From an uncultured Actinomycetes bacterium (lineage in GTDB: Bacteria; Actinomycetota; Thermoleophilia; Gaiellales; Gaiellaceae): DNA of 64,000 nt. Each line of letters begins with the position of its first letter. The first letter of the stretch is position 1. Location: positions 374,060 through 438,059 of the forward strand of contig CAWKDZ010000001.1 in assembly GCA_963848525.1 (NCBI GenBank), read 5' to 3'. This document shows, one piece after another, positions 16,450 to 50,908 of the stretch. A program made the position numbers and the translations under genes. The notes beneath the pieces were generated by a model, which saw nothing but the letters and a program-made list of their open reading frames with translations, was not told the DNA's origin and made no database searches.

Positions 16450-16479
16450 GAGACCGAGGCTATCCTGTGCCTCGAGCGT

Positions 16480-16553: not shown

Positions 16554-16567
16554 CCTCTTGAACAGCG
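16526..16567 (+). repeat. Direct repeat copy 1 (att-like): last 28 nt of tRNA-His plus 14 nt downstream
   Basis: The sequence gtcgcgggttcgagtcccgtccgccacccctcttgaacagcg recurs at 17226-17266 with one 1-nt indel and one mismatch. Confidence 0.75.
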
Positions 16568-16595
16568 GCTTGGTCGTCTCGCGCTCACAACGCGG

Positions 16596-17210
16596 GTGAC
16601 GAAGAGCTCGGCCCGGCCGGTCGTCCTTCGGAACGGCGTCGAGGTCGAGGATCCCCTGCCTGTCGTGCTGGGGTTCCTGGAGGCCTACCCGCACTTCGAC
16701 GTCGGCGACCCTTCGGGACCCGTCTCGTTCGGCGAGCCCGACCTTCGGCACGCGAATCGGGGCGGCGCCCGGATCTCGGCCGTCGAGATCGGGGTGATCC
16801 TCGAGCGGCGCCCCGCGATCGAGCGCGCTCTCCGGGCGATCGCCCCAGAGGCATCGCTGGCCGAAGCGACGAACGCAGTGCCGTGGTCGCCGCTGAGGCA
16901 GCTGTTCGACACGTTCGCGGAAATCCGGGGAGTCGGCCTCTCGAAGATGACGAAGGCACTACACCGAAAGCGCCCCGCGTTGATCCCGATGCTCGACAGC
17001 GTCGTTCAGGCGTACCTCGTGAACGACGACCCGGGACTCGACGCACCGTTCGGCGAGCGCGCGCTCGGGCTCGTTCGCGGCTACAAGCGCGACGTCGACC
17101 GTAACCGCTCCACGCTCCGCGCGATTCGCCGCGAGCTCGCACGGCGCGACCGCGAGCTCACCGAGGTGCGGATCCTCGACCTTTTGATCTTCTCTGTCGC
17201 GGCGCCGTAG
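16596..17210 (+). CDS. Hypothetical protein with a helix-hairpin-helix-like motif; sole gene between the tRNA-His direct repeats
   Basis: GTG 16596 is the first start after the tRNA within ORF 16512..17210. The protein contains ...LFDTFAEIRGVGLSKMTKALHRKRPALIPMLD... (HhH-like hxxhxGhG). I do not recognise the family with confidence. Confidence 0.6.
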   Translation: MTKSSARPVVLRNGVEVEDPLPVVLGFLEAYPHFDVGDPSGPVSFGEPDLRHANRGGARISAVEIGVILERRPAIERALRAIAPEASLAEATNAVPWSPLRQLFDTFAEIRGVGLSKMTKALHRKRPALIPMLDSVVQAYLVNDDPGLDAPFGERALGLVRGYKRDVDRNRSTLRAIRRELARRDRELTEVRILDLLIFSVAAP

Positions 17211-17225
17211 GCCTACGCCACCTGA

Positions 17226-17266
17226 GTCGCGGTTCGAGTCCCGTCCGCCACTCCTCTTGAACAGCG
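17226..17266 (+). repeat. Direct repeat copy 2 (att-like partial tRNA-His 3' end)
   Basis: The sequence gtcgcggttcgagtcccgtccgccactcctcttgaacagcg is a near-identical copy of 16526-16567. It lacks the 5' two-thirds of the tRNA. Confidence 0.75.
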
Positions 17267-17269
17267 AGA

Positions 17270-17971
17270 ATGGACGCCGTGGCGCTTCCCGCCGGCACAG
17301 TCACGTTCGTCTTCAGTGACGTCGAGGGCTCGACGGAGCTGCTCAAGCGGCTCGGCGATCACTACGCGGAGCTCATCTCCGCTCACAGAAGCATCGTCCG
17401 TGAGACGTTCGGCGCCCACGGAGGCGTCGAAATCGACGCCCAGGGCGACGCGTTCTTCTTCGCCTTCGCCCGCGCGCGCGACGCGGCCACTGCGGCCGTG
17501 GACGCGCAGCGCGCCCATGCGGAGCACTCGTGGCCGGACGGGGAGCACGTCCGTGTGCGCATGGGGCTGCATACGGGCGAGCCGGTCGTCGGTGAGGAGG
17601 GGTATCTCGGGCTCGACGTCGTACGCGCCGCCCGGATCTGCACAGCCGGCAAGGGAGGCCAAGTCCTCGTCTCGGAATCGACGAAGGCGCTCCTCGGACC
17701 CTCCCTCCCAGAGGGCGTCTCGGTGCATCCGATGGGCGAGCGCCGGTTGAAGGACTTGGACGAGCCTGAGCGCGTCTACGAGCTCGTCATCGACGGCATG
17801 GAACAACCCGAGCCGGAGACCGCGCCGCCGGAGGTGGCAGCGGACGTGGATGACGACGTCGACGCCCGCGCCGCCGATCTCGCCAGGCGGTTCTCCAAAG
17901 ACATCAAGGCGAGCGTCCTCCGGTCCCTCGAGCGCAGCCTGGGCGAGCGCGAGCACCGGGGCCCCCGCTAG
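17270..17971 (+). CDS. Stand-alone class III adenylate/guanylate cyclase-domain protein
   Basis: 233 aa: GTVTFVFSDVEGSTELL...VEIDAQGDAFFFAF...VRMGLHTGEP...GLDVVRAARI...RLKDL. This is the cyclase homology domain of the type found at the N-terminus of LuxR/ATPase cyclases, followed by an acidic helical tail. Confidence 0.8.
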   Translation: MDAVALPAGTVTFVFSDVEGSTELLKRLGDHYAELISAHRSIVRETFGAHGGVEIDAQGDAFFFAFARARDAATAAVDAQRAHAEHSWPDGEHVRVRMGLHTGEPVVGEEGYLGLDVVRAARICTAGKGGQVLVSESTKALLGPSLPEGVSVHPMGERRLKDLDEPERVYELVIDGMEQPEPETAPPEVAADVDDDVDARAADLARRFSKDIKASVLRSLERSLGEREHRGPR

Positions 17972-17982
17972 CTGTTCTGCTG

Positions 17983-18807
17983 ATGGGCGAGTCCGGGTTC
18001 GTCGACGTCGATGGCGGGAGGATCTACTACGAGGCCGAGGGGGACGGCCCACCCGTGCTCCTGATCCACGGCGGCCTCGGCACGCTGCGCATGTGGGACG
18101 AGCAGGTTCCCCGGTTCGCCGAGCGCCACCGAGTGATCCGCTACGACACGCGTGGGTTGGGCCGCACGGAGACGGACGACGTCGAGTTCGCGAACCGCGA
18201 CGACGCGATCGCAGTCCTCGACCACCTCGGGGTCGCGTCGGCGGCGGTCGTCGGACAGTCACGGGGCGCGATGATCGCGCTCGACCTCGCGCTCGATCGC
18301 GCCGACCGCGTCGACGCGCTCGTCAGCGTCGCGGGCGGGATCGGCGGCTACGAGCCGGCGCTCGCGGACGGGACGCCCCAGCCGCCGTGGGACGAGCTCG
18401 AGCGCCTCTGGGAGCAGAAGGAGTGGCCGGCGCTCGCAGAGCTCGAGACCCAGGTCTGGGTCGACGGGTGGGGACAGCCGCGGGACCGCGTCGACCCGGA
18501 GGTGCGCCGGCGTGTCCACGACTGGATCCTGGCGGGCTACGAGGCCGACAACGCCGAAGGACGCCCGGTGCCGATGGCACCGCCGGCGATCGAGCGCCTC
18601 GACGAGCTCCGCGTGCCGACACTCGTGCTCGTCGGTGCAGTGGACGAGCCGGGCGCCGTCGCGGCAGGCCGCAAGCTCGGGTCAGCGCCGAACGCGCAGC
18701 TCGTCGAGTTCGAGAACGTCGCGCACATGGTCCACCTCGAGCAGCCGGATCGGTTCGCGGAGGTCGTGCTCGAGTTCCTCGCCGGCGCCCGGCCCCGCGG
18801 AGGCTGA
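17983..18807 (+). CDS. Alpha/beta-fold hydrolase
   Basis: 274 aa: GDGPPVLLIHGGLGT...VVGQSRGAMIALDLAL (GxSxG-like nucleophile elbow)...ENVAHMVHLEQPDRF. Confidence 0.85.
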   Translation: MGESGFVDVDGGRIYYEAEGDGPPVLLIHGGLGTLRMWDEQVPRFAERHRVIRYDTRGLGRTETDDVEFANRDDAIAVLDHLGVASAAVVGQSRGAMIALDLALDRADRVDALVSVAGGIGGYEPALADGTPQPPWDELERLWEQKEWPALAELETQVWVDGWGQPRDRVDPEVRRRVHDWILAGYEADNAEGRPVPMAPPAIERLDELRVPTLVLVGAVDEPGAVAAGRKLGSAPNAQLVEFENVAHMVHLEQPDRFAEVVLEFLAGARPRGG

Positions 18808-18815
18808 CCGCTGCC

Positions 18816-19652
18816 ATGGCAACCCCGCAGACCCCTCTAGACCCCGACGCCTTCAACGCGTTCGAAGCGTCGGCTTGGGAGCAGCGGGCAGCTGGGTATC
18901 ACCGGTTCTTCGCGGCGATCACGACGCGGATGATCGAGCCGCTCCTCGACGTTGCCGAGGTTGGCCGAGGCACTCGGGTTCTCGACGTCGCGACCGGACC
19001 GGGCTACGTTGCGGCCGCTTGTGCGGCGCGGGGCGCCGACGTCGTGGGGGTCGACGTCGCGCCTGAGATGGTGTCGCTCGCCCAGAGGCTTCGTCCCGAG
19101 ATCGAGTTCCGCCAGGCGGACGCAGAGCAGTTGCCGTTCGCCGACGGCTCGTTTGACGCGGTCCTCGGGAACTTCCTCATCCCGCACGTCGGCAGGCCGG
19201 AGCAGATCGCCCTAGAGCTCGCACGCGTCGTCAGGCCGGGTGGGAGGTTGGCTCTGTCCACTTGGGACGTCCCCGAGCAGGCGCGGCTGCTCGGCGTGCT
19301 CGTCGATGCCGCGGCGGAAGTCGGAGCGCAGCTCCCCGCCGACGTCCCATCCGGACCCCCGTTCTTTCGCTTCTCCGAGGAGACCGAGTTCGGCCGGCTC
19401 CTCCGGGCCGCCGGTCTGAGCGATGTCGCCGTGCAGACCGTGGCGTTCACCCACCGTGTCGCGAGCGTCGACGAGCTGTGGTCCGGGCTGACGGACGGGA
19501 CCGTGCGGATGCGCGCGCTCGTGCTCGCCCAGTCGCAAGACGTGCAGGCGCAGATCCGAGCTGCCTTCGATCGTTTCGCTCGCCGCTACACCACGAACGG
19601 CGGTCTGGACCTGCCCGTCTCGATGAAGCTCGCCTCCGGCCGCAAGCCGTAG
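18816..19652 (+). CDS. Class I SAM-dependent methyltransferase
   Basis: ATG 18816 within ORF 17850..19652. Motif I is VLDVATGPGYVAAACA, followed by ...FDAVLGNFLIPH...VVRPGGRLALSTW. Confidence 0.85.
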   Translation: MATPQTPLDPDAFNAFEASAWEQRAAGYHRFFAAITTRMIEPLLDVAEVGRGTRVLDVATGPGYVAAACAARGADVVGVDVAPEMVSLAQRLRPEIEFRQADAEQLPFADGSFDAVLGNFLIPHVGRPEQIALELARVVRPGGRLALSTWDVPEQARLLGVLVDAAAEVGAQLPADVPSGPPFFRFSEETEFGRLLRAAGLSDVAVQTVAFTHRVASVDELWSGLTDGTVRMRALVLAQSQDVQAQIRAAFDRFARRYTTNGGLDLPVSMKLASGRKP

Positions 19653-19711
19653 GCGGGCAAAGCCCGCCTACGCGGCATCAAGAGACGAGGACCTCGGGCC
19701 GATAAGGCCCT

Positions 19712-20197
19712 ATGGGCCTCTTTGCGGCAGAGGCGCTCGAGCGCGAGCAGACGGTGGGCGGCGTGCTGAAGGCGACGTGCGTCCAGCTGACGAGCGTGCT
19801 CGACGCCGACGCGGCCAACCTCTCGCGCGTGATCGGGGAGCTGCTCGTCGACCTCGTCGAGCACTCGGTCGACGGGCGGCGCGTGCAGCTCGGCCGCAGC
19901 TACCTCCTCCCCGACTACCCGGTGACGGAGGAAGTGATCGAGGCAGGCGAGCCTCGGACCGTGTGGCTGCTCGATCCGGGCGTCGACCCGAGCGAGGCCG
20001 CGCTCCTCCGCGAGCTCGACTTCGACGCGCTCCTGATGCTCCCGCTCGAGCTCGACGGCCGCTGCTGGGGTCTGGTCGAGGTGTACCGGACGGGCACGCA
20101 GCGGTTCTCCGACGACGAGGTCGCGCTCGGCGTGGAAGTGATCCAGACAGCGGCGCGGGCCATCCAGAAGCTTCAGCGTCGAGCGGCGGCAGCGTAG
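19712..20197 (+). CDS. GAF-domain protein
   Basis: 161 aa: ...LDADAANLSRV...YPVTEEVIEAGEPRTV...LLMLPLELDGRCWGLVEVYR...FSDDEV.LGVEV.... This is a typical single GAF fold pattern. Confidence 0.7.
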   Translation: MGLFAAEALEREQTVGGVLKATCVQLTSVLDADAANLSRVIGELLVDLVEHSVDGRRVQLGRSYLLPDYPVTEEVIEAGEPRTVWLLDPGVDPSEAALLRELDFDALLMLPLELDGRCWGLVEVYRTGTQRFSDDEVALGVEVIQTAARAIQKLQRRAAAA

Positions 20198-20299
20198 GTC
20201 TTACCGCACGAGCAGAAGTCAGGAGGCGGGCTTTGCCCGACTCCGGTCACTCCGCGGGAGCCAGACCGGCGTCGCCACACCCACGCCGACAAAGTCGAG

Positions 20300-20597
20300 G
20301 CGCGAAGCGCCGACGTTCCGCCGCCGCGCTTGGCTCCCCGCCGTGCAAGCCTCCGGGGTTGAGCGGCCCGCCCGCCTCTACGACCTCCGCTCCACCTTTG
20401 CCTCCAACGCTCTCGCCGCGGGCGTATCGGTGTTCGAGCTCGCACGCGTGATGGGGACGAGCGTGGCGATGATCGAGCGGCACTACGGGACGCTCCTCGA
20501 TGGCGCCCACGCGGGGATCGCCGGCCGGCTCGACGCGCTCGAAGCTCGGTTAGCTGCTACCGAAGTCGCTCCCGATGCTCTCGACCCTTCGCAGTGA
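20300..20597 (+). pseudogene. Tyrosine recombinase (phage-type integrase) C-terminal remnant
   Basis: ...FRRRAWLPAVQASGVERPARLYDLRSTFASNALAAGVSVFELARVMGTSVAMIERHYGTLL matches only the last catalytic region of integrases (canonical ...YDLRHTFAS...MGHS...ERHYGH). No N-terminal or core-binding part is present, and the conserved His of LRHT is Ser. Confidence 0.65.
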
Positions 20598-20639
20598 GAC
20601 CCCAGACCGCGATCTCGTAGGGGATCGCCTGCTCGGTGC

Positions 20640-20834
20640 TCAAGAGGTCTCCGAGACGATCGCCGGGAACGAAATCGCCATTTGCATCCGCACCGCGCGG
20701 AGCTGCACCACCTCTGCCTCTTGCAGCAGCGCGCGCGCCGCCTCCGGCGACTTCAGCTTCCGCTGCGCGTCCTTGATCAGCGTGTCCGCGCGTGCCTCGA
20801 GCGTCCTGATCGTCTCGGTCAGATCCTCCGTCAT
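20640..20834 (-). CDS. Small hypothetical helical protein (possibly truncated or frameshifted)
   Basis: ATG 20834 is preceded by GAAAGGTGG. The protein is MTEDLTETIRTLEARADTLIKDAQRKLKSPEAARALLQEAEVVQL.... The tail looks non-native, and a second frame continues as ...STEQAIPYEIAVWGL. Confidence 0.3.
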   Translation of the reverse strand: MTEDLTETIRTLEARADTLIKDAQRKLKSPEAARALLQEAEVVQLRAVRMQMAISFPAIVSETS

Positions 20835-21004
20835 GGCTGCACCACCTTTCCGTCTTGGCCGCGCGAGCGGCGTTCCTCCAGCACGTTCTCTTGATTATCT
20901 CGTCGTCGTATCGGGATCCGAGAGACACGTTTAGGGCACAAGTGGGGCACGGCGGGGAACCCACGGTTCCCCCGAGTGAGCCGCAACCCCGCCTGGCTCC
21001 TCGA

Positions 21005-21076
21005 CGCGCCCGGGAGGATTCGAACCTCCGACCCGCGGCTTAGAAGGCCGCCGCTCTTCCACTGAGCTACGGGCGC
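21005..21076 (-). tRNA. tRNA-Arg (anticodon TCT)
   Basis: The reverse complement GCGCCCGTAGCTCAGTGGAAGAGCGGCGGCCTTCTAAGCCGCGGGTCGGAGGTTCGAATCCTCCCGGGCGCG forms a cloverleaf with anticodon loop CTTCTAA. Confidence 0.85.
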
Positions 21077-21141
21077 TCGCTGGACAGGGTAACGCCGAAC
21101 GGCGTCAGCGTCTGCGGCCGAAGTGCGCGTCGGTCGAGCGG

Positions 21142-22224
21142 CTAGAGCGGCGTCTCGGCGACCGGCTCGCGCTCGGCAGCCGCCTCGCGGCGACCGCGCA
21201 TCCATTCGAGCAGCAGCACCTGGATCGAGCCCGCGATCGGGATCGCGGCCAGGGCGCCGAGGATCCCCGCGATCGAGGCGCCGATCAGGACGGCGATCAG
21301 GATCGCGAGCGGCGAGAGCGCGACCGTGCGCGAGTACACGACCGGGTAGAGGAAGTGGTTCTCGAACTGCTGGTAGGCGATGAACCAGCCGAGCACGATG
21401 AGGCCGATCGTCAACCCCGAGTCGAGGAACGCGACGGTCGAGACGACGATTGCCGCGATCGTCGCGCCGGCCATGGGGATCAGATCGAGGAGCGCGACGA
21501 GCAGGGCCAGCGCGAACGCGTAGCTGACGCCGAGCACGCTGAGCAAGATGGCCGACGTCACGCCCGCGACGAACGCGATCAACAGCGCCCCGGCCACGAA
21601 CCCGCCGATCGTCGCGTACACCTCGGCGCCGACGCGACGCCACCGCGGCCGCCTGTCCTCGGGGACGAGCGAGAGGAACCGTTCGATCCAGCGTGGCCCC
21701 TCGAGGAGCATGAAGAAGGTCAGGACGAGGATCGTGATCGTGGCAACGACGGCCGTGACCACGCCCTTCGTCACGGCCACCGCAGTGCCGGAGACGCCCA
21801 GCACGCGGCCGAGGTCCAGGTCTCGGACGATGTCCTCCACCCGGTCGACGATCTGGTAGTCGGTCTGCAGGAAGCCGAGCCGGCCGCGGCCCTCGGTGAG
21901 GTCTTCGACGAAGCCGGGTACGGCGTCGACGAAGTCGTTCACCTCGTCGACGAGCGCGGGCACGAACGTGGCCCCGAGGCCGGCGATGCCGATGAACAGG
22001 AGCAGGTACGTCGCCCCAATCGCGAGTCCGCGCCGCGCGATCCCTCGCCGCATCAGGAACTCGACGAGCGGGTCGAGCGCGAGCGCGAGAAAGAGCGAGA
22101 TCAGGATCCACGTGAGGACCTGCCTCGACATCGAAAGTAGCTTGAGGACGGCCGCGACCGCGATCACGATCCCGACGATGGAGAGGATCGTGCGCGCGCG
22201 GAACCGGACGATCCGCTCGAGCAT
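21142..22224 (-). CDS. AI-2E family transporter (PerM/YhhT-like permease)
   Basis: 360-aa polytopic membrane protein with the family-typical C-terminal ...[15 protein letters not shown]...[26 protein letters not shown]. Confidence 0.85.
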
Positions 22225-22282
22225 CGACGTGAGCTTGACGGCGGGACCGGACGTTCACGAAAAGCGGATAGCATCGTCCGCC

Positions 22283-22741
22283 GTGACCGAGGCGACGCTG
22301 CAGACGAACCACGGGGCGATCGAGCTCGAGCTCTTCGACGAGGACGCGCCGAAGACCGTTGAGAACTTCGTCAAGCTCGCGCGGGATGGGTTCTACGACG
22401 GCGTCGTGTTCCACCGCGTGATCCCGGACTTCATGATCCAGGGAGGCGACCCGACCGGGACGGGCCGAGGCGGCCCGGGCTACACGTTCGAGGACGAGTT
22501 CAACGACAACAAGGTCGTCCGCGGGGCGCTCGCGATGGCGAACGCCGGGCCGAACACGAACGGCTCGCAGTTCTTCATCGTCACGGCCGAGGCGACGCCC
22601 TGGCTCGACGGCAAGCACACGGTCTTCGGTCGAGTCGCGAGCGGGATGGAGGTCGTCGACGCGATCTCCGCCGTCGCCACGGACCCGAACGACAAGCCGC
22701 GCGAAGACGTCACGATCGAACGGGTGGAACTTCAGACCTGA
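22283..22741 (+). CDS. Cyclophilin-type peptidyl-prolyl cis-trans isomerase
   Basis: GTG 22283: [64 protein letters not shown]...[18 protein letters not shown]. Confidence 0.9.
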
Positions 22742-23423
22742 GGGCATCGAGCCACTCGGGCCGTTCGAACCCTCCGTACTCCTGGATCGCGCCGAAGATG
22801 TGCTGAACGATCGCGGTCTGACAGACCGAGACACGGCACGTTCCGTATGGAAGACGATTCGAACGCTTCTTTTGGCTGTACTTCGAGTACGTATTTACGA
22901 TCGACTTGCAGAGGCTGCTCCGCGGGAGCTCGAGTTGTGCGAGCCAGAACCGCTCGATCTCGAACTGCCGGTCGACGTGATCGGCAAAGAGGTTGCACGT
23001 GACGCGGAAGCGCTCGTCTGGGACGTCGAAATACCTTCGGAGGAATCGAACGAAGAAGCGCAGCAGTTCCGGGTCAGAGTTCGTGATCTTCGCCGCGTTC
23101 CGGTCCTTGCTACCTTCGGCCCAGTAGAGCATGCAGCCGGCAGCGTGAAACGGATCACCGGATCGCGCGAGCCGACAGCCCTCCCATTGAGCCTGGCGTC
23201 GACGCTCCCGATGCCGCTCGCTAAGAGCTGCGTTGGCCAGCACCTGGCGGAAGTGAAGGCCGTTCGAAGCTTGAAGCCGTTGATGCTGGTCCGGCGTCAG
23301 CGCGATGTCCCGGACCCAGATGCTCACAGACGATTGCGAGACGCCGACGCGACGAGCGATGTCCTTGATCGATCTCCCCTCGCGTCGAAGGATGCGCGCC
23401 TGTTCTCGCTCGGCCGTTTTCAC
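22710..23423 (-). CDS. HTH-domain protein with a possible LAGLIDADG-like endonuclease core, encoded in a low-GC patch
   Basis: GTG 23423 is the first start clear of tRNA-Gly. The N-terminal HTH is [27 protein letters not shown], followed by ...[37 protein letters not shown].... Codon usage is visibly A/T-richer than in the neighbours. The 3' end overlaps the convergent cyclophilin gene by 32 nt. Confidence 0.55.
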
Positions 23424-23465
23424 ATCTGACGACAGTAGCGGTCGCGGAGGACGGGCCGTGTCCGA

Positions 23466-23536
23466 AGCGGGCGGGCGGAATTGAACCGCCATCATCGCGT
23501 TGGAAGCGCGAGGCTCTGCCGTTGAGCTACGCCCGC
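23466..23536 (-). tRNA. tRNA-Gly (anticodon TCC)
   Basis: The reverse complement GCGGGCGTAGCTCAACGGCAGAGCCTCGCGCTTCCAACGCGATGATGGCGGTTCAATTCCGCCCGCCCGCT forms a cloverleaf with anticodon loop CTTCCAA. Confidence 0.85.
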
Positions 23537-23559
23537 GAGGTCCGAGTAGCGTAGCCCGC

Positions 23560-24165
23560 GTGGAGTGGAGCGGCGCCCGCCTGGCTTCCTTCGTCGGCGG
23601 CGTCGCGCTCCTCCTCGCCTCGCTGCTCGGGCCGCTGCACGAGCTCCAGTTCGACTCGCTGATTGCGCACCTGCTCCAGAACATCGCGCTCGCCGAGTGG
23701 GCGCCGGCGCTGCTCGTCTTCGGGTTGCCGCCGGACCTCGGGCGCCGGCTGGCGCGCTTCGTCCCGCCCTGGCTCGGGCTGCCGCTCTGGCTGCTCGCGT
23801 ACTACACCTGGCACGCGCCCCCGCTGTACGACGCGGCGCTCCGCAGCCCCCACGCGCTCCTCCACCTCGAGCACCTGACGTATCTGCTCGCCGGCATGGC
23901 CCTGTGGCTCCCGGTGGCGCATGGACGCATGGGCGACGGCGGCAAGGCGCTGTACCTCTTCGCGGCGTTCCTGCTGATCAGCCCGCTCGGGCTCTTGCTC
24001 GCGCTGATCCCCGAGCCCGTCTACGACTTCTACGACGGCCACTGGGGCCTGACGGCGCTCGAAGATCAGCAGATCGGCGGCGTGACGATGTCCTCGGAGG
24101 CGGCGGTGGTCTTCTTCGTCGTGCTCACGTTCTACTTCTCGCGCTTCATGCGCGAGGAGAGCTGA
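23560..24165 (+). CDS. Cytochrome c oxidase assembly factor CtaG-like membrane protein
   Basis: GTG 23560 is the first start after the tRNA. The protein is polytopic, with ...HLLQNIALAEWAPALLVFGLP...YTWHAPPLYDAAL...HLEHLTYLLAGMALW...EDQQIGGV.... Confidence 0.7.
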   Translation: MEWSGARLASFVGGVALLLASLLGPLHELQFDSLIAHLLQNIALAEWAPALLVFGLPPDLGRRLARFVPPWLGLPLWLLAYYTWHAPPLYDAALRSPHALLHLEHLTYLLAGMALWLPVAHGRMGDGGKALYLFAAFLLISPLGLLLALIPEPVYDFYDGHWGLTALEDQQIGGVTMSSEAAVVFFVVLTFYFSRFMREES

Positions 24166-24166
24166 A

Positions 24167-24241
24167 TCGGGGCGGCGAGACTCGAACTCGCGAACCTCCG
24201 CGTCCCAAACGCGGCGCTCTACCAGGCTGAGCTACGCCCCG
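24167..24241 (-). tRNA. tRNA-Pro (anticodon TGG)
   Basis: The reverse complement CGGGGCGTAGCTCAGCCTGGTAGAGCGCCGCGTTTGGGACGCGGAGG...GAGTTCGAGTCTCGCCGCCCCGA forms a cloverleaf with anticodon loop TTTGGGA. Confidence 0.85.
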
Positions 24242-42252: not shown

Positions 42253-43073
42253 CTACGACGGGCGGCTCTCACCGAGCACGGCGTCGGACAAGCTCGGCCA
42301 GAGCTTCTTCGCCTCCGCGCTCCACTCGTCGAAGGGCAGGTCGCCGAGGAACCCGAGCGCGAGGCCGGCCTCGGGGTCGACCCAGAGGAACGTGCCGCTC
42401 CCGCCGAAGTGGCCGAATGTCCGCGGCGAGTTGTTCGCGCCGGTCCAGTGCGGTGACTTGCCGTCCCGCAGCTCGAAGCCGAGGCCCCAGTCGTTCGGGT
42501 CCATCCGCCCGAAGTCGGGCAGCACGCCGACGAGCCCCGGGAAGTTGACCATCGTCGCCTCGGCGAGCGTCTCGGGCGCCACGAGCGTCGGCGCGAGCAG
42601 CTCCTTCGCAAGGTCGAGCAGGTCGAGCAGCGTCCCGTAGAGGCCGGTGGCGGGCGAGCCGCGCAGCTCGCCTGTGAACTCGAGCGGCGCGAGCACGGCT
42701 CGGTCAGGTACTCGACGAACGGCATCTCCGCGCGCGACTCGACGTGCTGCGCGAGCACCTCGAAGCCGCCGTTCGAGTAGATGCGGCGCTCCCCCGGCGG
42801 CGCGATCGGCGTCGTCCCGTCGAACGGCAGACCCGACGCGTGCGCGAGCAGGTGGCGCACCGTCGAGCCGGGCGGCCCGGCCGGCTCGTCGAGGTCGACG
42901 ACGCCCTCCTCGGCGGCGACGAGCGTCGCCAGCGCGGTCACGAGCTTCGTGATCGAGGCCCAGGCGAACTCGCGCCCCTCGTTCCCGTGCATCGCGCGGA
43001 CGCCATCGCCGTCCGCGACTCCGACCGCAGTGTGCTCGGGAGGCCACGCGTCCACTCGACTCAGCGCCTCCAC
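42253..43073 (-). pseudogene. Serine beta-lactamase / PBP-like hydrolase, reads as frameshifted near 42697-42701
   Basis: The N-terminal part with the SxxK motif (WASITKLVTALA) ...MPFVEYLTE is in ORF 42240..43073. The continuation AVLAPLEFTGELRGSPATGLYGTLLDLL...HFGGSGTFLWVDPE is in ORF 42253..43110. The junction looks like a 1-nt loss (gag-gcc read as gagcc). Confidence 0.7.
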
Positions 43074-43093
43074 GCGGCGCGATACTACGTCGG

Positions 43094-44668
43094 GTGGAGC
43101 GTCGGCTCATCTCGTCGGGCTCGCCCTACGAGTCGATCGTCGGGTTCTCGCGCGCAGTCGTCGCCGGTTCGCACGTGCACGTGAGCGGAACCGCGCCCGT
43201 GATGCCCGACGGCGAGCCGCTGCCGGACGACGCGTACGCGCAGGCCCGGCGCTGCCTCGCGATCATCCTCGACGCGCTGGCCGAGGCCGGCGCGCGCCCC
43301 GCCGACGTCGTGCGCACGCGCATCTACCTGACGAGCCCCGACGTCTTCGACGACGTCGCGAGGGCGCACGCGGAGGTCTTCGGCGACGTTCGCCCGGCGT
43401 CCACGGCGGTGGTGGCGCAGCTGCTCGACCCCCGTTGGAAGGTCGAGATCGAGGCGGAGGCGCGTGCTGCCGTGAAGCAGATCTACCCTGCGACGATCAC
43501 CGGCAAGAGCTTCGCGCCCGGCGGCAGCGTGCTGGATCACAAGTTCGGCCAGAGCGACCCGTACACGCTCGGCGTCGAGGAGGAATACATGCTGCTCGAC
43601 GGCGAGACGTACGACCTCGTGCAGCACATCGACACGGTCCTCGCGGCGACGTCTGGTGACGAGCTCGCCGACCGCCTCGCGCCCGAGCTGATGCAATCCG
43701 TGCTCGAGATCGCGACGCCGGTCTGCCGGAACACGGCCGACGTCGACCGCGAGCTGCGGAAGCTGCGCGGCTACGTGATCGACGTCGCCCGCGAGAAGGG
43801 ACTGCGCGTCGGCTCGGCCGGGACGCATCCGTTCTCGCTCTTCGAACGCCAGCGGATCACCGCGCGCGACCGCTACCGCAACCTCGTCGACCAGCTCCAG
43901 TACGTCGCGCGCCGCGAGCTGATCTTCGGCATGCACGTCCACGTCGCCGTCGACGACTGCGAGAAGGCGATCCAGGTCGTGAACGGGATGCTCGTCGAGC
44001 TGCCGACGCTGCTGGCGCTGTCCGCAAGCTCGCCGTTCTGGCGCGGCGAGCCGACCGGCCTCTCGTCCTCGCGGCAGATGGTGTTCGCGGCGTTCCCCCG
44101 CTCGGGCCCGCCGCCGCGCTTCAAGGACTACGACGACTACGCGGAGGTCGTCGGCCAGCTCGAGAAGACGGGCTGCATCGCGGACTACACGCACATCTGG
44201 TGGGACATCCGCCTGCACCCGAAGTGGGGCACGGTCGAGGTGCGGATCTGCGACGCCGTCACCCGTGTCGAGGACGCGGTCGCGATCACGGCGTACTGCC
44301 AGGCGCTCGTCAAGCTGTACTCCGAGCTCTACGACCGGCGCGAGCCGATCCCGTCGTTCCACCGGATCCTGACGACGGAGAACAAGTGGCTCTCGGCCCG
44401 CTACGGCCTCGAGGCGCCGATCATGGACCTGGTCACGGGCCGCAGGAACCGCGTTCCGATCGCGCAGCTGATCCGCCGGCGGCTCCGCGACCTCGAGCCG
44501 CACGCGCGCGAGCTCGGGTCGGAGCGGGAGCTCGAGGGGATCCGCGGGATCCTCTCGCGCGGCAGCAGCGCCGACCGGCAGCTGCGCGTGTTCAACGCCA
44601 ACCGCGACATCGTCGAGGTCGTGCGCGAGATCGCCGACGCGACCGAGGTCGCCGCCGTCGCGGCCTAG
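43094..44668 (+). CDS. RidA/YjgF-like domain fused to a YbdK-type carboxylate-amine ligase (GCS2 family)
   Basis: 524 aa. Residues ~1-125 are RidA-like (...SRAVVAGSHVHVSGTAP...VRTRIYL...PASTAVVAQLLDPRWKVEIEAEA). After a ~30-aa linker the remainder is GCS2-like (TLGVEEEYMLLD...ELMQSVLEI.T.........GTHPF...FG.HVHV...). Confidence 0.8.
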   Translation: MERRLISSGSPYESIVGFSRAVVAGSHVHVSGTAPVMPDGEPLPDDAYAQARRCLAIILDALAEAGARPADVVRTRIYLTSPDVFDDVARAHAEVFGDVRPASTAVVAQLLDPRWKVEIEAEARAAVKQIYPATITGKSFAPGGSVLDHKFGQSDPYTLGVEEEYMLLDGETYDLVQHIDTVLAATSGDELADRLAPELMQSVLEIATPVCRNTADVDRELRKLRGYVIDVAREKGLRVGSAGTHPFSLFERQRITARDRYRNLVDQLQYVARRELIFGMHVHVAVDDCEKAIQVVNGMLVELPTLLALSASSPFWRGEPTGLSSSRQMVFAAFPRSGPPPRFKDYDDYAEVVGQLEKTGCIADYTHIWWDIRLHPKWGTVEVRICDAVTRVEDAVAITAYCQALVKLYSELYDRREPIPSFHRILTTENKWLSARYGLEAPIMDLVTGRRNRVPIAQLIRRRLRDLEPHARELGSERELEGIRGILSRGSSADRQLRVFNANRDIVEVVREIADATEVAAVAA

Positions 44669-44669
44669 C

Positions 44670-45296
44670 GTGCTCGGCCAGATCGCCGCGTTCACGCTCG
44701 CTGCGACGGTCGTCACGATCACGCCCGGGCCTGACATGGCGCTCGTCGCGCGGCGCGCGGTCACCGACGGCTGGCGGCGTGCCTCGGTCACGAGCGCCGG
44801 CATCGTGACGGGGCTGCTCGTCCACGCGGCGGCGTCGGCGCTCGGGATCTCGGTCCTCCTCGTGCGCTCGGCGACCGCGTTCACGGTGCTCAAGATCGCC
44901 GGCGCCTGCTACCTCGTCGTGCTCGGGATCCTCAGCTTTCGGGCGGCCCGACGGACGACGCGCGAGCCGATCGACCGCATCCCGCCGCGCGCACCGCGAT
45001 CGGGTCGGACGAGCTTCGGGCAGGGCTTCCTCAACAACGTCCTCAACCCGAAGCCCGCGCTCTTCTACCTCGCGTTCCTGCCTCAGTTCGTGGGGCCCGG
45101 CGACCCAGTCGTGTTGATGACGGGGATCTTCGTCGCGATCCACATCGTGATCAGCATCGTCTGGCTCGTCGTCTGGGCCTGGCTCGTCGGGCGCGCCGGC
45201 GCGCTGATGCAGCCTCGCTGGCGAGCGGTGCTCGAGCGCGTGACAGGCGCAGTACTCGTCGCGCTCGGACTGCGGCTCGCGACGACGAGCCGCTAG
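44670..45296 (+). CDS. LysE/RhtB-family amino-acid exporter
   Basis: 208 aa: ...TITPGPDMALV...KIAGA.YL..LG........F.QGFL.N.LNPK..LFYLAFLPQF.. Confidence 0.85.
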   Translation: MLGQIAAFTLAATVVTITPGPDMALVARRAVTDGWRRASVTSAGIVTGLLVHAAASALGISVLLVRSATAFTVLKIAGACYLVVLGILSFRAARRTTREPIDRIPPRAPRSGRTSFGQGFLNNVLNPKPALFYLAFLPQFVGPGDPVVLMTGIFVAIHIVISIVWLVVWAWLVGRAGALMQPRWRAVLERVTGAVLVALGLRLATTSR

Positions 45297-46378
45297 CGCA
45301 GGAGCTTCGGCGCCGCGCCGCGGCGGACGACGACGAGCCGCCGTCCGTCCGGCGTGAAGCCGAGCCCGGCGACGCGCCCGACGCGGACCGGCTCGTCGAC
45401 GGCGTCGGTGGCCAGCCGGTAGCGCCACACCTTTCCGTCCACAGCGAACGCGACGGCGTCCTCTCTCGGCGAGACCGCAGCAGCGCCGGCGAGGTCGCGC
45501 GTGCCGCGCGTCCGCTCACCGTTTCGGAACCTGACGATCCGCGCGATCCGCGGCCCGGCGAGGTCGACGACGAGCAGCCGGCCGGCGAACGGGCCGGCGA
45601 CGTAGAGCCTCCGCTCGTCGGGCGAAAGCGCGAGCGAGGACGTGCGGATCGTGCTCGGGTCGACGAAGCCGGCGGGTAGGTCGAGGCAGTGTCCGAAGCC
45701 CCGGTCGAGGTCGAGCGAGTGGATGAAGCCGCCGCCGTCCGGCTTGACGTAGAGGGTCAGCAGCCAGCGGCCGTCGCTCGTGGCGACGGACGTCCACGCG
45801 GCGCCGATCATCTTCTGCTGGGCCGACGACGCCCTCGACCAGCGGCGTCACGGAGAGCCGGCTCGTGCGCAGGTCGTAGAGCCGGAGGTTGTAGCCGCCG
45901 TCGTCGTACTTGATCAGGAAGAGGCGGCGCCCGTCGAGCGAGACCGCCTCGACGCCGTAGGTCCCGCGCAGCGTCGATGCGGCGGAACACCGTCCAGCGC
46001 GAGGTGCCGACGACCGTGAGCCGGGTCGAGCCGGGCCCGAACGACGTGAGCACCGCGCGGTCTCCGCGCGCCGAGACGCGCCGCGAGCCGCTGACGCGTG
46101 CCCGGAGGGAGCCGCGCGCGACGACGCGCCCGCTGGGCAGCGCGTACCGGGTCAAGCTCGTCCGCGTGCCCGCTCGCGCGGGCGACGACGAACGTGCGGC
46201 CGTCGGCCGACTGGAGGCCCGCCGAGAGCCGCAGGTCGGCGCGGAGCGAGTCGAGGTCGTAGAGGACGAGCGGGCCGAACTGCCCGTTCGGGCGGACGGT
46301 GAGCAGGCTCGGGCCGGACGACGCCTGCGCCGGGACCGCGAGCCCGGCGAGCACGGCGACGAGCGCGAGACGCTTCAT
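45293..46378 (-). pseudogene. Secreted beta-propeller-like protein broken by three frameshifts
   Basis: One protein can be read only by hopping frames:
- MKRLALVAVLAGLAVPAQA...GRTFVVARASG (ORF 45914..46537).
- TRYALPSGRVVARGSL...TVVGTSRWTVFRRIDAA (ORF 45808..46155).
- TLRGTYGVEAVSLDGRRLFLIKYDDGGYNLRLYDLRTSRLSVTPLVEG (ORF 45516..45851 frame).
- QKMIGAAWTSVATSDGRWLLTLYVKPDGGGFIHSLDL... (ORF 45293..45811).
The junctions lie at about 46150-46165, 45965-45985 and 45815-45822. Confidence 0.6.
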
Positions 46379-46469
46379 GCGTCTGTTACACCCGGGACCT
46401 CGAAAAAGGTCCCGGCCGTATTCCGGGCGTGGACCTCTCGGCCCTTCCCTCTCGTACAGTCGCTGCGGG

Positions 46470-46981
46470 ATGCCGGGCTCTGGCCGCCACGAGCGCGCCT
46501 GGGTGCGGGGCGCCCAGGGCGGGTCGGCCTCCGACATCGAGGCGCTGTTTCGCGCGCACTGGCCGAGAGCGTTCCGCGCCGCCTACCTCGTCACCCACGA
46601 CGCCGCCGCGGCCGAGGACATCGCGCAGGAGGCGTTCGTCGCCGCCATCCGCTCGCTCGACCGGTTCGACCGGCGGCGCCCGTTCGGCCCGTGGCTGCAT
46701 CGGATCGTCGTCAACCGGGCGATCGACTGGGCACGCACCCGCCGGCTCCGCGGTGAGACCGAGCTCGTCGACGTCGCCGCAGCAGAGCGCGAGCATGCGG
46801 CAACCCGCACGACCTGGCGGCAGCGATCGCGCGGCTGCCGCCGGAGCAGCGCGCGGTGATCGTCCTGCGCCATCTGCTCGAGTACACGCCCGGCGAGATC
46901 GCCGACCTGCTCGGCCTGCCTCGCGGCACGGTCAACTCTCGACTGCGTCGAGGTCTCGACGCGCTGAAGGAGTCGTTGTGA
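46470..46981 (+). pseudogene. ECF-type RNA polymerase sigma factor, reads as frameshifted near 46795-46810
   Basis: Region 2 (...AAAEDIAQEAFVAAIRSLDRFDRRRPFGPWLHRIVVNRAIDWARTRR) is in the frame of ORF 46299..46859. Region 4 (DLAAAIARLPPEQRAVIVLRHLLEYTPGEIADLLGLPRGTVNSRLRRGLDALKESL*) is in another frame and ends at TGA 46979-46981. Confidence 0.7.
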
Positions 46982-48071
46982 AGCGGGAGTTCGAGCGGAT
47001 CGAGATCCCCGGAGAGCACGACGCGCGCGAGCGCGCCTGGTCGGTCGTGCGAGCCGCGTTCGCCGAGCGCGAGCCGCGCGCACGCGAGGTTCCGTGGCGC
47101 CCGCTGGCGCTCGCGGCCGCGGCGACCGCGCTCGTCGCGGCGACGTTCTCGCCTCCGGGGCGGGCGATCGTCGACACCGTCCGCGAGACGATCGGGATCG
47201 CCGGCGCCGACGAGGCGCTCGTCGCGCTCCCCGACGGCGGCCGGCTGCTCGTCGTCTCGGCCGACGGCGTCTGGACGGTCGCGCGCGACGGCGTGCGACG
47301 CCGCCTGGGCGACTACGACGACGCGACGTGGTCTCCGTTCGGCAACTTCGTCGCCGCGACGACGTCGGACGAGCTCACCGCGCTCGAGCCGGACGGCGAC
47401 GTTCGCTGGAAGCTCGCGAGGCCCGGCGTCCGCTTCCCCCGGTGGGGCGGGACGCGCTTCGACACGCGGATCGCGTACTTCAGCCGAGGTTCGCTTCGCG
47501 TCGTCGGAGGAGACGGCAGAGGGAGATCGGCTGCTCGTCCGCCGGGCGGCCGCCGTCGCACCCGCCTGGCGGCCGGGGGCTCGGCACGTGCTCGCCTACG
47601 CGGACGGCTCCGGCCGCATCGTCGCGATCGAGGCGGACTCGGGCCGCCGGCTCTGGCGCACCCGCCCGGGCGGGCGCGTCGCGCAGCTCGAGTGGTCGAC
47701 GGACGGCCGGCCGCCTGCTCGTCCGCCGCGCGCGCTTCGTCGACGTGCTCACCCCGGAGGGACAGCCGTTCACGGGCGTGCGCATCCCGAACGGCGTCGT
47801 CACCGCGGCGGCCTTCCGTCCACGCGGTCACACCGTCGCCGTCGCGTACAAGGTCGGGAACCGCACGCGCGTGCTCGCTCGACGGCTGCTCTTCGCGGGG
47901 CCCGGGCACGTCGACCAGCTCGCCTGGTCGCCGGACGCCCGCTGGCTCCTCGTCGCGTGGCCGACGGCGTCGGAGTGGCTCTTCGTCGGCGCGGACGGCC
48001 GGTCGCGCGTCGATGCGGTGCAGTTCGATCCGGAAGACTTCCCGCGCATCGCCGGCTGGTGCTGCCCGTGA
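46978..48071 (+). pseudogene. Anti-sigma-like membrane protein with periplasmic TolB-like beta-propeller, two frameshifts
   Basis: GTG 46978 overlaps the sigma stop (GTGA). The reading runs in three pieces:
- VKREFERIEIPGEHDARERAW...TM...DGVWTVARDG...AYFSRGSLRVVGGDG.
- GDRLLVRRAAAVAPAWRPGARHVLAYADGSGRIVAIEADSGRRLWRT...EWSTDGR (frame of ORF 47588).
- RLLVRRARFVDVLTPEGQPF...LAWSPDARWLLVAW...IAGWCCP* (ORF 47094..48071).
The junctions lie at about 47515-47522 and 47705-47712. Confidence 0.6.
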
Positions 48072-49010
48072 ACAGGCGCGAGTTCGTCGTCGGCGCGGCC
48101 GCGCTCGCGCTCGCGCCCGATGCGTTCGCGCGACGTGCTCGGCGGCACGCCGACGGCGCTCGTGACCGCCGACCTCGAGTCGCACGTGGTCGCGTTCGAC
48201 GTCTGGGGCGGCAAGGTGCTTCGCCGCATCCGCACACCGCCGGGACCGCGCGCGATCGAGACGGTCAGGAACGATGCCGTCGTCGCGCACACGGAGCACG
48301 GCCTGCTGTCGATCATCGACGGAGCCCGACTGCGGGTGCGGGAAGTGCTCGACGGCTTCGAGGAGCCGCGCTACGCCGTTGCGTACGGCGAGCACGCCTT
48401 CGTCACGGACTCACGCGCAGCGCAGCTCGTCGCCGTCCACGTGCCGAGCGCGCGCGTGGTCGGCCGCGTGGAGCTCGGCGGCGCTCCGCGGCACCTGTCG
48501 CTCGAGCCCTCGGGACGTGTCATCTGGGCCGTGCTCGGCAACAAGGCCGACCGGATCGCCGCGGTCGATGTCACCGACGTGCGCCGACCCCGTCTGATGC
48601 GCCGGATCGCGTCGCCGTTCCTCGCGCACGACGTCGGGTTCGGCCCGGGCCTCGCGTGGGTGACCGGTGGTGCGTCACGGGAGCTCGTCCTCTTCGACGC
48701 GAGTGGGCGTAGGCGAAGGCTTCCGGCCGACGCTCCGCCCCAGCACGTCACCTTCATGGGCCCTTTCGCATTCGTCGCGAGTGGCGACAGCGGGACGCTT
48801 CGGGTCTACATGAAGCGGACCGCCCAGCTGATCCGCACGAGCCTGATCCCCACCGGCTCGTACAACGTCCAGCACACGCAAGCCGGTCTGGTGCTCAGCC
48901 CGTCGCTCACGCGCGGGACGCTCTACGTCGGCGACCGGATCGGTCGGCGCGTCCGGCGGCTTCAGGTCGCACGCTCGTCGCACGACGCGTGCCTGGTCGT
49001 GAGCGCGTAG
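48068..49010 (+). pseudogene. Tat-signal beta-propeller (YVTN/lactonase-like) protein, frameshift between signal and mature part
   Basis: GTG 48068 (GTGA overlap) opens VNRREFVVGAAALALAPDAFA, a twin-arginine signal, in one frame. The mature part RDVLGGTPTALVTADLESHVVAFDVWGG... is ORF 48120..49010 in another frame. The junction is at about 48118-48135. Confidence 0.6.
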
Positions 49011-49020
49011 CGTTCCGCGG

Positions 49021-49479
49021 GTGCTGACGCCGGGCGACCGCCTCCCCGACGCCAACGTGTTCGCCGCGCCGGGCGAGGCGCTCTCGCTCCGCGACGCGGC
49101 CGCGGGCTCGACGACGCTCTTCCTCTTCTATCTCTTCGACTTCTCCGCGACCTGAACGGACGAGATGGAGCTCCTGCGTGACAGGAGACAGGAGTTCGAC
49201 GACGCGGGCGTGCGCGTCTTTGCGATCTCGCGCGACTCGCCGTGGACGCACATCGCGTGGGCGCAGGTGCTCGACCTGAACTTCCCGCTGCTGTCGGACT
49301 GGAACGCCGAGGCGACGCATGCGTTCGGGATCGCGATCACGCACCGCGAGCTCCATGACGTGTCGGCCCGCTCGGCGTTCCTCGTCGACGAGGGCGGTAC
49401 GGTCCGCCGCGCATGGCGCTACGAGACTGGCGACGTCCCGGACTTCGACGAGCTGCTCGCAGCCGCTCGGGCCTTGTAG
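49021..49479 (+). CDS. AhpE/BCP-type 1-Cys peroxiredoxin with in-frame TGA at the peroxidatic Cys position (candidate selenoprotein, or nonsense pseudogene)
   Basis: GTG 49021...LFLFYLFDFSAT-TGA(49153-49155)-TDEMELLRDRRQEFDDAGVRVFAISRDSPWTHIAWAQ...FPLLSDW...SAFLVDEGGTVRRAW.... The same frame is kept across the TGA. The track reports only 49165..49479. Confidence 0.65.
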
Positions 49480-50908
49480 CGCTCGGCGCCGCCCTCTACC
49501 TCGCCGCCGGGGTGCTCGCGCTCTCGCCGGCGCTGCGGCACGCGTCGTCCGACCTGCTCGCGTACGGGACGCCGCGCCCGGGCGGCGTCGTCACGCCGGG
49601 TGACCACCTCCAGACGACGTACAACCTCTGGCTCCCCGGCCACCAGCTCGCGAACGGCCGCGCGCCGTGGCTCGACCCCTACAGCTTCCAGCCCGAGGCC
49701 GAGCCGCGCGTCAACTACCCCGCCTGGCCGTTCGCGGTCGTCTTCTGGCCCCTGCACGCGCTCTTCGGGACGATCGGCGGCTGGAACGCGTTCGCGCTGC
49801 TGACGTACGTCGCCGCCGGCGGGGCGGCAGCCGCGTGGCTGCGCTCGCTGCAGCTGCCGCTCGGCGCGGCGCTCGTCGGCGGGCTCGCGTTCGCGCTCGC
49901 GCCCTACCGGTCGCTCCAGACCTCGGGCGGCCATCTGCTCGGGCCGATCGCTGCGCTCCTTCCCCTCTCGCTCTGGGCGCTGGAGCGGCGGCACGCGTGG
50001 CTCGCGGTGGCCGCGATCGCGTCGATTCCGCTCTCCGGCCAGGTGCACCTCGCCCTTGGCGCGCTCGCGTTCTTCTTCGCGTACGCGGCCGTCCGCCGCC
50101 GCACCGCTCGTCGGTGCGCTCGGCGCGGCGGCCGGCATCACCGCGGGACTGCTCGTCTACGTGACCGAGATCCGCGGCACGGCGGCCGCGTCCGGACGCT
50201 CGTTCGACGAGGTCGAGCGCTACTCGGCGGAGCTGCTCGACTTCGTCACGCGCCACTCGCGGCACGGGTTCGAGACGTTCGTCTTCCTCGGCTGGCTCCT
50301 CCCGGCCCTCGCCGTGGCCGGAGCCGTGCTGCTCTGGCGCCGCGACCGTGGGCTCGCGGCGACGCTGGCGCTCGGCGTGCTCGTCCCGATCGTGCTCGCG
50401 CTCGGCGCGAACACGCCGCTCTACGAGCCGCTCTGGAACGCGGTGCCCGGTCTCGAGGGGACGCGCGTGCCGGCGCGCCTGCTGCCGATCGCGTGCCTCT
50501 GCCTCGCCGCTCTCGCCGCCCATGCGGTCTCGCGCGTCCCGTGGCGCTGGGCGGCGCTCGCGGCGGTCCCGCTCCTCGCACTCGACCTCCGCGTCGACGC
50601 CTACGACCCGATGGGCGGCGACGACGACAACGCCGTCTACGCGCAGCTGCGCGACGCCGGCTCCCGGGCGCCTGCTGGAACGTCCGGTGCACCTCCCCGA
50701 GCTCCAGGAAGGGAGCGTGTACCTCTACTACGCGATCCAAGCGCCGCGCGAGCGGCCGCTCGGCTACTCGACGACGGCCCCGCCCGTCGCCGAGCGCACC
50801 GCCCGCGGGCTGCGCAGCGGCCGGCTCGATCCCTCGACGCTCGGCGTCCGCTGGGTCGTGCGGTTCCGGGACGGCCGCCCCGTCGAGCTTCTCCCTCCGC
50901 AGGGCTAG
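49413..50908 (+). pseudogene. Large polytopic membrane protein (glycosyltransferase-C / YfhO-like appearance), two frameshifts
   Basis: The reading runs in three pieces:
- MALRDWRRPGLRRAARSRSGLVALGAALYLAAGVLAL...ALAFFFAYAAVRR (ORF 49413).
- APLVGALGAAAGITAGLLVYV...AVYAQLRDAG (ORF 50056 frame).
- PGRLLERPVHLPELQEGSVYLYYAIQAPRERPLGY...VELLPPQG* (ORF 50348..50908).
The junctions lie at about 50090-50105 and 50660-50668. The 5' end overlaps the peroxiredoxin gene by 67 nt. Confidence 0.55.

Follow-up and report, generated by a model that had tools for sequence, protein, structure and literature searches.

The stretch of DNA that we analyse here, referred to as the window, comprises 64,000 nucleotides of contig CAWKDZ010000001.1 from an uncultured actinomycete of the family Gaiellaceae, and the gene at issue is a peroxiredoxin (Prx) gene that carries an in-frame TGA. 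The frame runs on the plus strand from a GTG at 49021 through 44 sense codons, the TGA at 49153-49155 and 107 further codons to a TAG at 49477-49479 (the translation reads VLTPGDRL...FDFSAT, TGA, TDEMELLRDR... to the TAG). The TGA is the sole interruption of this 152-codon gene and it falls at the column of the peroxidatic Cys. The original prediction, made from the letters of the window, proposed this TGA as a candidate selenocysteine (Sec) codon. Its coordinates and sequences are all correct, including the placement of the TGA in frame on both sides; its remark that the open reading frame (ORF) track holds only the part after the TGA is not, as the mechanical ORF listing gives two halves, 49021-49155 (44 amino acids, aa) and 49165-49479 (104 aa). 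The features of the locus are collected in Table 1.

Table 1. Features of the peroxiredoxin locus, in window coordinates.
Feature	Coordinates	Strand	Details
Complete peroxiredoxin gene	49021..49479	+	152 codons, GTG start, one UGA predicted to be read through; AhpE/BCP-like, putative '1-Sec' type
UGA as probable selenocysteine (U45) in an S-x-x-U motif, peroxidatic-Cys position	49153..49155	+	TGA in orthologues, Cys homologues, alignment with 2cx3
Ser42 codon (T/S of the T/S-x-x-U active-site motif)	49144..49146	+	S in 83/83, clade-invariant
Arg117 codon, conserved peroxiredoxin active-site Arg	49369..49371	+	R in 83/83; alignment with 2cx3
Core hairpin, candidate SECIS	49171..49187	+	CUCCUG 49171-76, loop CGUGA 49177-81, CAGGAG 49182-87
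Lower SECIS stem, 5' strand CGGAC (tentative)	49157..49161	+	pairs with 49194-49198
Lower SECIS stem, 3' strand GUUCG (tentative)	49194..49198	+	pairs with 49157-49161

When the TGA is replaced by Cys, residues 4-130 of the product match positions 1-123 of the 124 in the Pfam model AhpC-TSA (PF00578) with an E-value of 1.9e-25, and therefore a single domain spans the TGA. The same 152-residue product matches Redoxin (PF08534; E 4.2e-16). A search of the PDB returns 112 peroxiredoxin chains at E < 1e-5, and nearest among these solved structures stand Sulfolobus Bcp4 (3hjp, E 2.8e-15), Aeropyrum BCP (2cx3, E 1.7e-14) and Mycobacterium tuberculosis AhpE (1xxu, E 5.6e-14); BCP and AhpE thus stand at about equal distance, which agrees with the earlier assignment to an AhpE/BCP type. 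Aligned with 2cx3, the protein has residue 45 opposite the Cys of FSPVCTKEL and Arg117 opposite the Arg of VAKRAVFIV. Cys also occupies the TGA column in 62-69 homologous proteins, and these together with 2cx3 place the TGA at the peroxidatic-Cys codon, as had been claimed. The window protein holds no further Cys or Sec and is therefore of the one-Cys (here presumptively one-Sec) type.

We compare the gene with its relatives in a first set of 83 unique genes, made up of the window, loci from the Joint Genome Institute (JGI) and GTDB genomes. Across these sequences Ser42 is encoded by five different codons and Arg117 by six, with the residue invariant in each case. As Ser42 is invariant despite its five codons, its conservation acts at the level of the protein only. 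The ratio of nonsynonymous to synonymous change (dN/dS) is 0.45 over codons 2-43 and 0.37 over codons 57-150; both halves of the gene are under purifying selection in one frame. The peroxiredoxin gene is itself free of indels, unlike its frameshifted neighbours.

A TGA conserved in relatives, with Cys counterparts

The same TGA recurs in relatives of the gene. A scan with one GTDB genome per species yields 80 loci, from metagenome-assembled genomes labelled Gaiellaceae, Gaiellales, Thermoleophilia or Actinomycetota, and TGA stands at the column in all 80, at 60-76% amino acid identity. The five JGI contigs that we reached through 104-aa truncated gene calls (DNA was fetched for two calls) also have the TGA, in 5/5 cases, and show a uniform arrangement of a 44-aa call, the TGA, three codons and a 104-aa call, all in one frame. 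The first set as a whole has TGA in 83/83 genes. A separate metagenome comparison set, consisting of 80 loci from a scan seeded with Cys forms plus three earlier Cys loci, holds 77 TGA and 6 TGC among its 83 members. Over all sets we count 145 unique TGA-bearing 54-nt segments. The alignment of orthologues that the original prediction had suggested as a check thus returns TGA throughout the GTDB and JGI loci and in most of the metagenome set, together with TGC in syntenic homologues. On these genomes, the gene is part of a near-universal clade in the Gaiellaceae and Gaiellales, soil Actinomycetota.

Protein databases present a different face of the same gene. Full-length Cys homologues reach about 66% identity, and the few full-length matches above that level are TGA or AGA forms; alongside them stand 104-aa gene calls by the dozen, 75-97% identical and with their start exactly at Met49. 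Among the top 120 protein matches, 33 are truncations of 100-108 aa, of which at least one is an NCBI entry (P0116). Public collections also contain proteins with Trp (16) or Gly (1) at the active-site position (for example P0001, P0005, P0011, P0014 and P0034; loci L086/L087). The DNA behind P0001, one of the Trp proteins, reads TGA, and therefore the gene caller had used a code in which TGA is an amino acid. A single short JGI contig (Ga0467039_0293844, 944 nt; L088:283-336, protein P0003) has AGA (Arg) instead of TGA and keeps the hairpin described below; the first base of the codon may have been misread in sequencing, or the copy may have been inactivated or altered recently.

The column is TGC in L089, L090, L103, L128 and L175-L177. 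Two of these Cys loci, L089 and L090/91, have the full context of beta-lactamase, RidA and GCS2 upstream of the peroxiredoxin, with or without an extracytoplasmic function (ECF) sigma factor, and a third, L175, adjoins a beta-lactamase gene. A rough tree built by neighbour joining from 234 unique proteins shows the 164 Sec forms (as we call those with TGA) and 69 Cys forms interleaved, and parsimony requires at least 15 changes between them; for so short a protein and so low-resolution a tree, this shows only that Sec/Cys interconversion has been frequent. One Cys form (L090/L091:10133-10186, P0013, TGC) is about 84-86% identical to Sec forms (compare L093 and L097) and has the full 7-bp stem with a loop of CGCGA in place of CGUGA; it has the look of a gene in which Cys recently replaced Sec and left a 'fossil' hairpin behind.

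A constrained hairpin downstream of the TGA

The second feature that recurs with the TGA is a small stem-loop just downstream (Table 1), which we consider as a candidate selenocysteine insertion sequence (SECIS). Its consensus is GCUCCUG[CGUGA]CAGGAGC, with the loop in brackets. The seventh pair, 49170/49188, is G-C in most relatives; in the window the two positions are G and A and stay unpaired, which leaves 6 bp. The minimum free energy (MFE) of the hairpin is -8.7 kcal/mol for the window and -11.0 kcal/mol for the consensus. The published model of bacterial SECIS elements (bSECIS) describes an apical loop of 3-9 nt, a stem of 4-16 bp, a G in the first two loop positions, a UGA-to-loop distance of 16-37 nt and an MFE of -7.5 kcal/mol or lower (PMC13188914). 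The window hairpin lies within this description throughout, with a 5-nt loop, a stem of 6-7 bp, a distance of 21 nt and the MFE values just given, and its loop CGUGA has G at position 2 followed by U; the earlier observation that the spacing and the GU-containing loop resemble a SECIS is borne out.

Beyond its shape, the hairpin is set apart by how little its sequence varies. In the 83 unique Sec-form genes, codons 50-56 (GAG CUC CUG CGU GAC AGG AGC) are near-invariant, synonymous sites included: L51 is CTC in 82/83, L52 is CTG in 83/83, R53 is CGT in 82/83 and R55 is AGG in 83/83, compared with three to six codons at each of the other invariant Arg, Leu and Ser columns. The pairwise synonymous difference falls to 0.017 at codons 50-56, the single minimum along the gene, against 0.3-0.55 elsewhere. 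Pairing of the helix in the 83-sequence alignment is 98.1% overall and 100% for the inner six pairs. The changes that do occur within the stem in these sequences are U-A to U.G (four times), C-G to U.G (once) and one compensatory change of U-A to G-C in L088 (GCGCCUG/CAGGCGC); a second compensatory change, U-A to C-G, is found in L133 of the metagenome set. The main evidence for the hairpin is accordingly the constraint on its nucleotides, which points to selection at that level, with a covariation signal that is real and sparse.

The original prediction had offered two pairings. One was the short pairing of Table 1, and this is the conserved one. The other joined GAGCUCCUG (49168-49176) to CAGGAGUUC (49189-49197) in 9 bp; both strands are indeed present at these positions, and the pairing does not hold as a conserved element, since 79% of its cells are paired, compensatory changes are absent, its top two pairs are open in most cases and the invariant AGG codon would lie unconstrained in its loop. 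RNAfold on a consensus 48-mer also predicts a lower stem beneath the core hairpin. This stem is possible, with 90.4% of cells paired in the 83 sequences, one pair that varies among A-U, G-U and G-C, and end pairs with 13-14 cells left unpaired.

The Cys forms supply a natural control for the hairpin, and we compare 145 unique Sec forms with 7 unique Cys forms by Fisher test. Loop codon 53 is CGT in 144/145 Sec forms and in 0/7 Cys forms, which have CGC or CGG (p = 2.5e-11), and codon 55 is AGG in 145/145 and 2/7 (p = 3.3e-8); both are rare Arg codons, fixed in the Sec forms. A hairpin of -7.5 kcal/mol or lower is present in 142/145 Sec forms and in one of the seven Cys forms, L090 (p = 3.7e-8), and the median MFE is -11.0 kcal/mol for Sec forms and -3.5 kcal/mol for Cys forms. 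The contrast in the hairpin codons therefore indicates that maintenance of the hairpin is confined to the forms with UGA. Cys orthologues sharing the same downstream sequence had been named at the outset as an observation that would speak against a Sec codon, and at the loop codon none of the seven shares it. The canonical hairpin is found in 142/145 Sec forms. Two TGA loci of the metagenome set, L117 and L167, are exceptions to its otherwise strict conservation: in both, the 3' arm reads CAGGUGC, with A changed to U, which gives a U-U mismatch and about -6.2 to -6.6 kcal/mol, and the loop of L117 is CGUGC.

How specific is the combination of TGA and hairpin? We scanned 1.65 Mb (the window and the loci of its relatives) on both strands for an in-frame TGA with open flanking frames rich in G+C at third codon positions (GC3), followed 16-37 nt downstream by a stem of at least 6 bp with an NG[G/U]NN loop. 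The scan returns 156 sites, 153 of them orthologues of this gene and the remaining 3 apparently spurious, in what seem to be non-coding frames. The signal of hairpin plus TGA is well above chance. Neither this SECIS-model scan nor a TGA/GC3 scan revealed a convincing further selenoprotein gene, whether in the window itself or among the 1.65 Mb of loci.

How the UGA is likely to be read

We consider it very probable that the UGA is a genuine selenocysteine codon accompanied by a bacterial SECIS. Sec-tRNA(Sec) would then decode the UGA; the elongation factor SelB would deliver this tRNA while tethered to the mRNA through the core hairpin 21 nt downstream, which the lower stem may extend. In the protein, a selenolate placed by Ser42 and Arg117 would reduce peroxides and become a selenenic acid. 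Recycling of the selenenic acid would call for an external thiol, because the protein has no resolving Cys. The comparisons show the conserved UGA, its pairing with Cys in homologues, the nucleotide-level selection on the hairpin and the loss of the hairpin in Cys forms; the insertion of Sec, the binding of SelB and the reductant are steps that we infer, the first of them by the comparative criteria through which most bacterial selenoprotein families are defined.

A number of observations weigh against this reading. The machinery that would insert Sec did not appear in searches that covered the window and about 20 kb around each orthologue (1.65 Mb), that is, the gene neighbourhood alone: tRNA-Sec was not found by ARAGORN and Rfam in the window or by ARAGORN in all loci, and tblastn with E. 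coli SelA, SelB and SelD queries gave no match in the window or loci. Rfam at a permissive threshold gave no match in 49100-49280, and literature searches turned up nothing on Sec in Gaiellales or Thermoleophilia, or on a Sec-AhpE. Covariation in the hairpin is thin, since so little of the hairpin varies at all: of its seven pairs, four never vary, and there are two independent compensatory events. Lastly, the Pro that precedes the peroxidatic residue by seven positions in the motif PxxxT/SxxC is absent, position 38 (49132-49134) being Leu in 82/83 Sec forms. This Leu is a deviation within the peroxiredoxin family and no reason for exclusion from it.

Two side observations belong here. Leu38 is also found in many Cys forms of the clade, and more distant Cys homologues keep the Pro (FYPFDWS..C; for example P0008, P0046 and P0061). 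The window has five ordinary tRNA genes, at 15465-24241 (Arg-TCG, His, Arg-TCT, Gly-TCC and Pro-TGG).

The alternative that survives best, and which we nevertheless regard as improbable, is that the UGA is translated as something other than Sec, either through hairpin-promoted near-cognate read-through (by Trp, Cys or Arg) or because the lineage uses genetic code 4 or 25, where UGA stands for Trp or Gly. It could draw on the failure of the neighbourhood searches to bring up the Sec machinery, on gene callers that translated some of these genes with Trp, and on the recent description of UGA-to-Trp reassignment within the Actinomycetota, in Eggerthellaceae (PMC13462651). A changed code is ruled out by two facts: TGA is the ordinary stop of 14/31 neighbouring genes on the same contigs, and the G+C content of the window is 70.7%, as against 31-40% in the reassigned Eggerthellaceae (PMC13462651). 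The 'W' proteins are TGA in the DNA. With Trp or Arg as the peroxidatic residue, a peroxiredoxin should lose its catalytic activity, yet the rest of the active site (S42 and R117) is invariant. The position, spacing and loop all match the model of a SelB-dependent SECIS.

Less probable again, to the point where we give it little weight, is that the locus makes a 44-aa peptide, terminated by the TGA, and separately from it a 104-aa protein that starts at Met49 and is without the catalytic residue. Both ORFs are called at every locus, and ATG is the most frequent codon 49. Many orthologues, however, have CTC, CTG or GTC there (L006-L012, L021, L050, L054, L057, L078 and many metagenome loci), and therefore no restart codon just after the TGA. 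The two parts moreover never differ in frame, lie four codons apart in each case and jointly make up one Prx domain; the 104-aa fragment would lack strands and the active-site loop of the fold, and a start site does not explain the synonymous freezing of codons 50-56.

Next to no probability attaches to a plain nonsense mutation (TGC/TGT to TGA) or a sequencing error in a pseudogene, within a decaying or badly assembled stretch. The surroundings might suggest as much: from 42.2 to 50.9 kb, five or more of the neighbouring genes are broken up into two or three frames, +1 insertions at ~50103 and ~50662 are private to the window when it is set against an Illumina-type contig of 91% identity, and the window's own contig is named in long-read style. 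This reading is ruled out by the conservation of the TGA in 145 distinct orthologous sequences from independent assemblies, all 80 species representatives included, in a gene with no indel and with purifying selection on both its halves.

Relation to known peroxiredoxins and to the neighbouring genes

A Sec codon in this gene would have clear precedent. Peroxiredoxins with a T/SxxU motif (COG1225/Bcp, PF00578) are an established selenoprotein family (Zhang, Gladyshev and co-workers; PMC1794560, PMC9312934, PMC13188914), and the window gene shares with them the AhpC/TSA fold, the predicted placement of Sec at the peroxidatic-Cys position with T or S three residues before it, the existence of Cys-containing homologues and a SECIS-like hairpin just downstream within the coding region. 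It differs in its motif, LxxxSxxU as against PxxxTxxU, and in its host. Cultured Gaiella is aerobic. Members of the family in the 2006 survey came mostly from anaerobes (PMC1794560), whereas the window belongs to Gaiellales, soil Actinomycetota.

PrxU of Eubacterium (Peptoclostridium) acidaminophilum is described in the literature (PMC1794560, PMC9312934, PMC13188914) as an experimentally shown Sec-peroxiredoxin (Sohling et al. 2001), in which Sec replaces the peroxidatic Cys as we propose for the window protein. The two belong to different subfamilies, the window protein being shorter (152 aa) and BCP/AhpE-like. Its score against the PrxU model NF040737 (peroxi_PrxU) is 37.7 bits, far from the cut-off of 270, with only its residues 29-129 matched to the 233-position model, and against the Prx-SUH model NF045827 it is 19.8 bits with a cut-off of 298, the motif being SxxU and not CxxU. 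No NCBIfam model reaches its cut-off for the window protein.

The closest structures, AhpE (Rv2238c; 1xxu, 1xvw, 4x0x) and the archaeal BCPs (3hjp, 2cx3), are of similar length, at 153-164 aa. The active-site Cys and Arg columns of 2cx3 are common to the window protein; 2cx3 and AhpE use Cys and have only remote sequence similarity to it. The chemistry of AhpE is one-Cys, and like the window protein it has no resolving Cys. The names 'mycoredoxin-/glutaredoxin-dependent peroxiredoxin' given to homologues at JGI are automatic labels.

On the RNA side, the SECIS elements of E. coli fdhF and fdnG and the bSECISearch model share with the window an in-ORF stem-loop after the UGA, at 16-37 nt, with a small loop containing G and then U. 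Compared with fdhF and fdnG, the window hairpin is unrelated in primary sequence, has a shorter core (6-7 bp), no bulged U that we could identify and no Rfam match. Rubrobacter, too, branches deep within the phylum. For Actinobacteria, Rubrobacter among them, there are reports of the Sec trait (PMC1794560). On these comparisons the gene is best placed within the known kind of Sec-peroxiredoxin, as a new member that is lineage-wide and BCP/AhpE-like in type.

How far does this extend? We hold at even odds a wider proposition, in which the whole order Gaiellales, abundant across the globe, makes an unrecognised 1-Sec AhpE/BCP-like peroxiredoxin with an atypical LxxxSxxU site and a near-invariant mini-SECIS, Sec and Cys have been exchanged at least about 15 times with fossil SECIS elements left in recent Cys forms, and the use of Sec has been overlooked through mis-calling. 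Gaiellaceae are among the commoner uncultured soil Actinobacteria, and to our knowledge they are not regarded as selenium users; if the proposition is true, the peroxide defence of Gaiellales would be tied to soil selenium. The biochemistry of Sec-peroxiredoxins is already known, and what would be new is the lineage in which it is set. Every public call that we examined mis-annotates the gene, as a 44-aa and 104-aa pair, as a code-4 Trp protein or as a truncated NCBI entry, and the result may thus serve both as a correction for annotation pipelines and as a marker of Sec use in soil metagenomes. With Sec forms that number more than 145 and Cys forms interleaved among them, the gene would also offer a view of how selection keeps a SECIS in place and how the element decays after the loss of Sec.

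The genes around the peroxiredoxin were compared over window positions 43082-49010 and 49512-50899 and in L001, L004, L005, L089 and L090. The conserved order in relatives is beta-lactamase (minus strand), RidA, GCS2, ECF sigma factor, a 315-aa gene, in places a 316-aa gene, the peroxiredoxin, a 461/603-aa gene, a short-chain dehydrogenase/reductase (SDR, minus strand) and an S8 peptidase. RidA and a glutamate-cysteine-ligase-like gene of the GCS2 family lie upstream within 6 kb in 50/80 genomes, directly adjacent in some, and in many cases the ECF sigma factor and its 315-aa partner separate these two genes from the peroxiredoxin. That the link to GCS2 points to a low-molecular-weight thiol as the reductant is speculation.

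In the window itself, the genes for the beta-lactamase, the ECF sigma factor, the 315-aa and 378-aa proteins and the downstream 461-aa protein are split over two or three frames between 42262 and 50899, for example at 42687-42699, ~46793-46802, ~47535-47739, ~50060-50128 and ~50658-50666; nearby lesions are indels, as the original prediction had it. The alignment with L004 is too divergent to place these frameshifts, and the 91%-identical JGI contig L173, in which the downstream gene is intact, resolves two of them as window +1 insertions, those near 50103 and 50662. The frameshifts look like assembly indels, which is likely and not proven, or like private decay, and leave the peroxiredoxin gene untouched. 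The 461/603-aa protein follows the peroxiredoxin immediately in 60/80 genomes and has a weak match to DUF2079; for the conserved neighbours as a group (315, 316, 461 and 603 aa), Pfam gives weak sub-threshold matches to DUF2079 and beta-propeller families.

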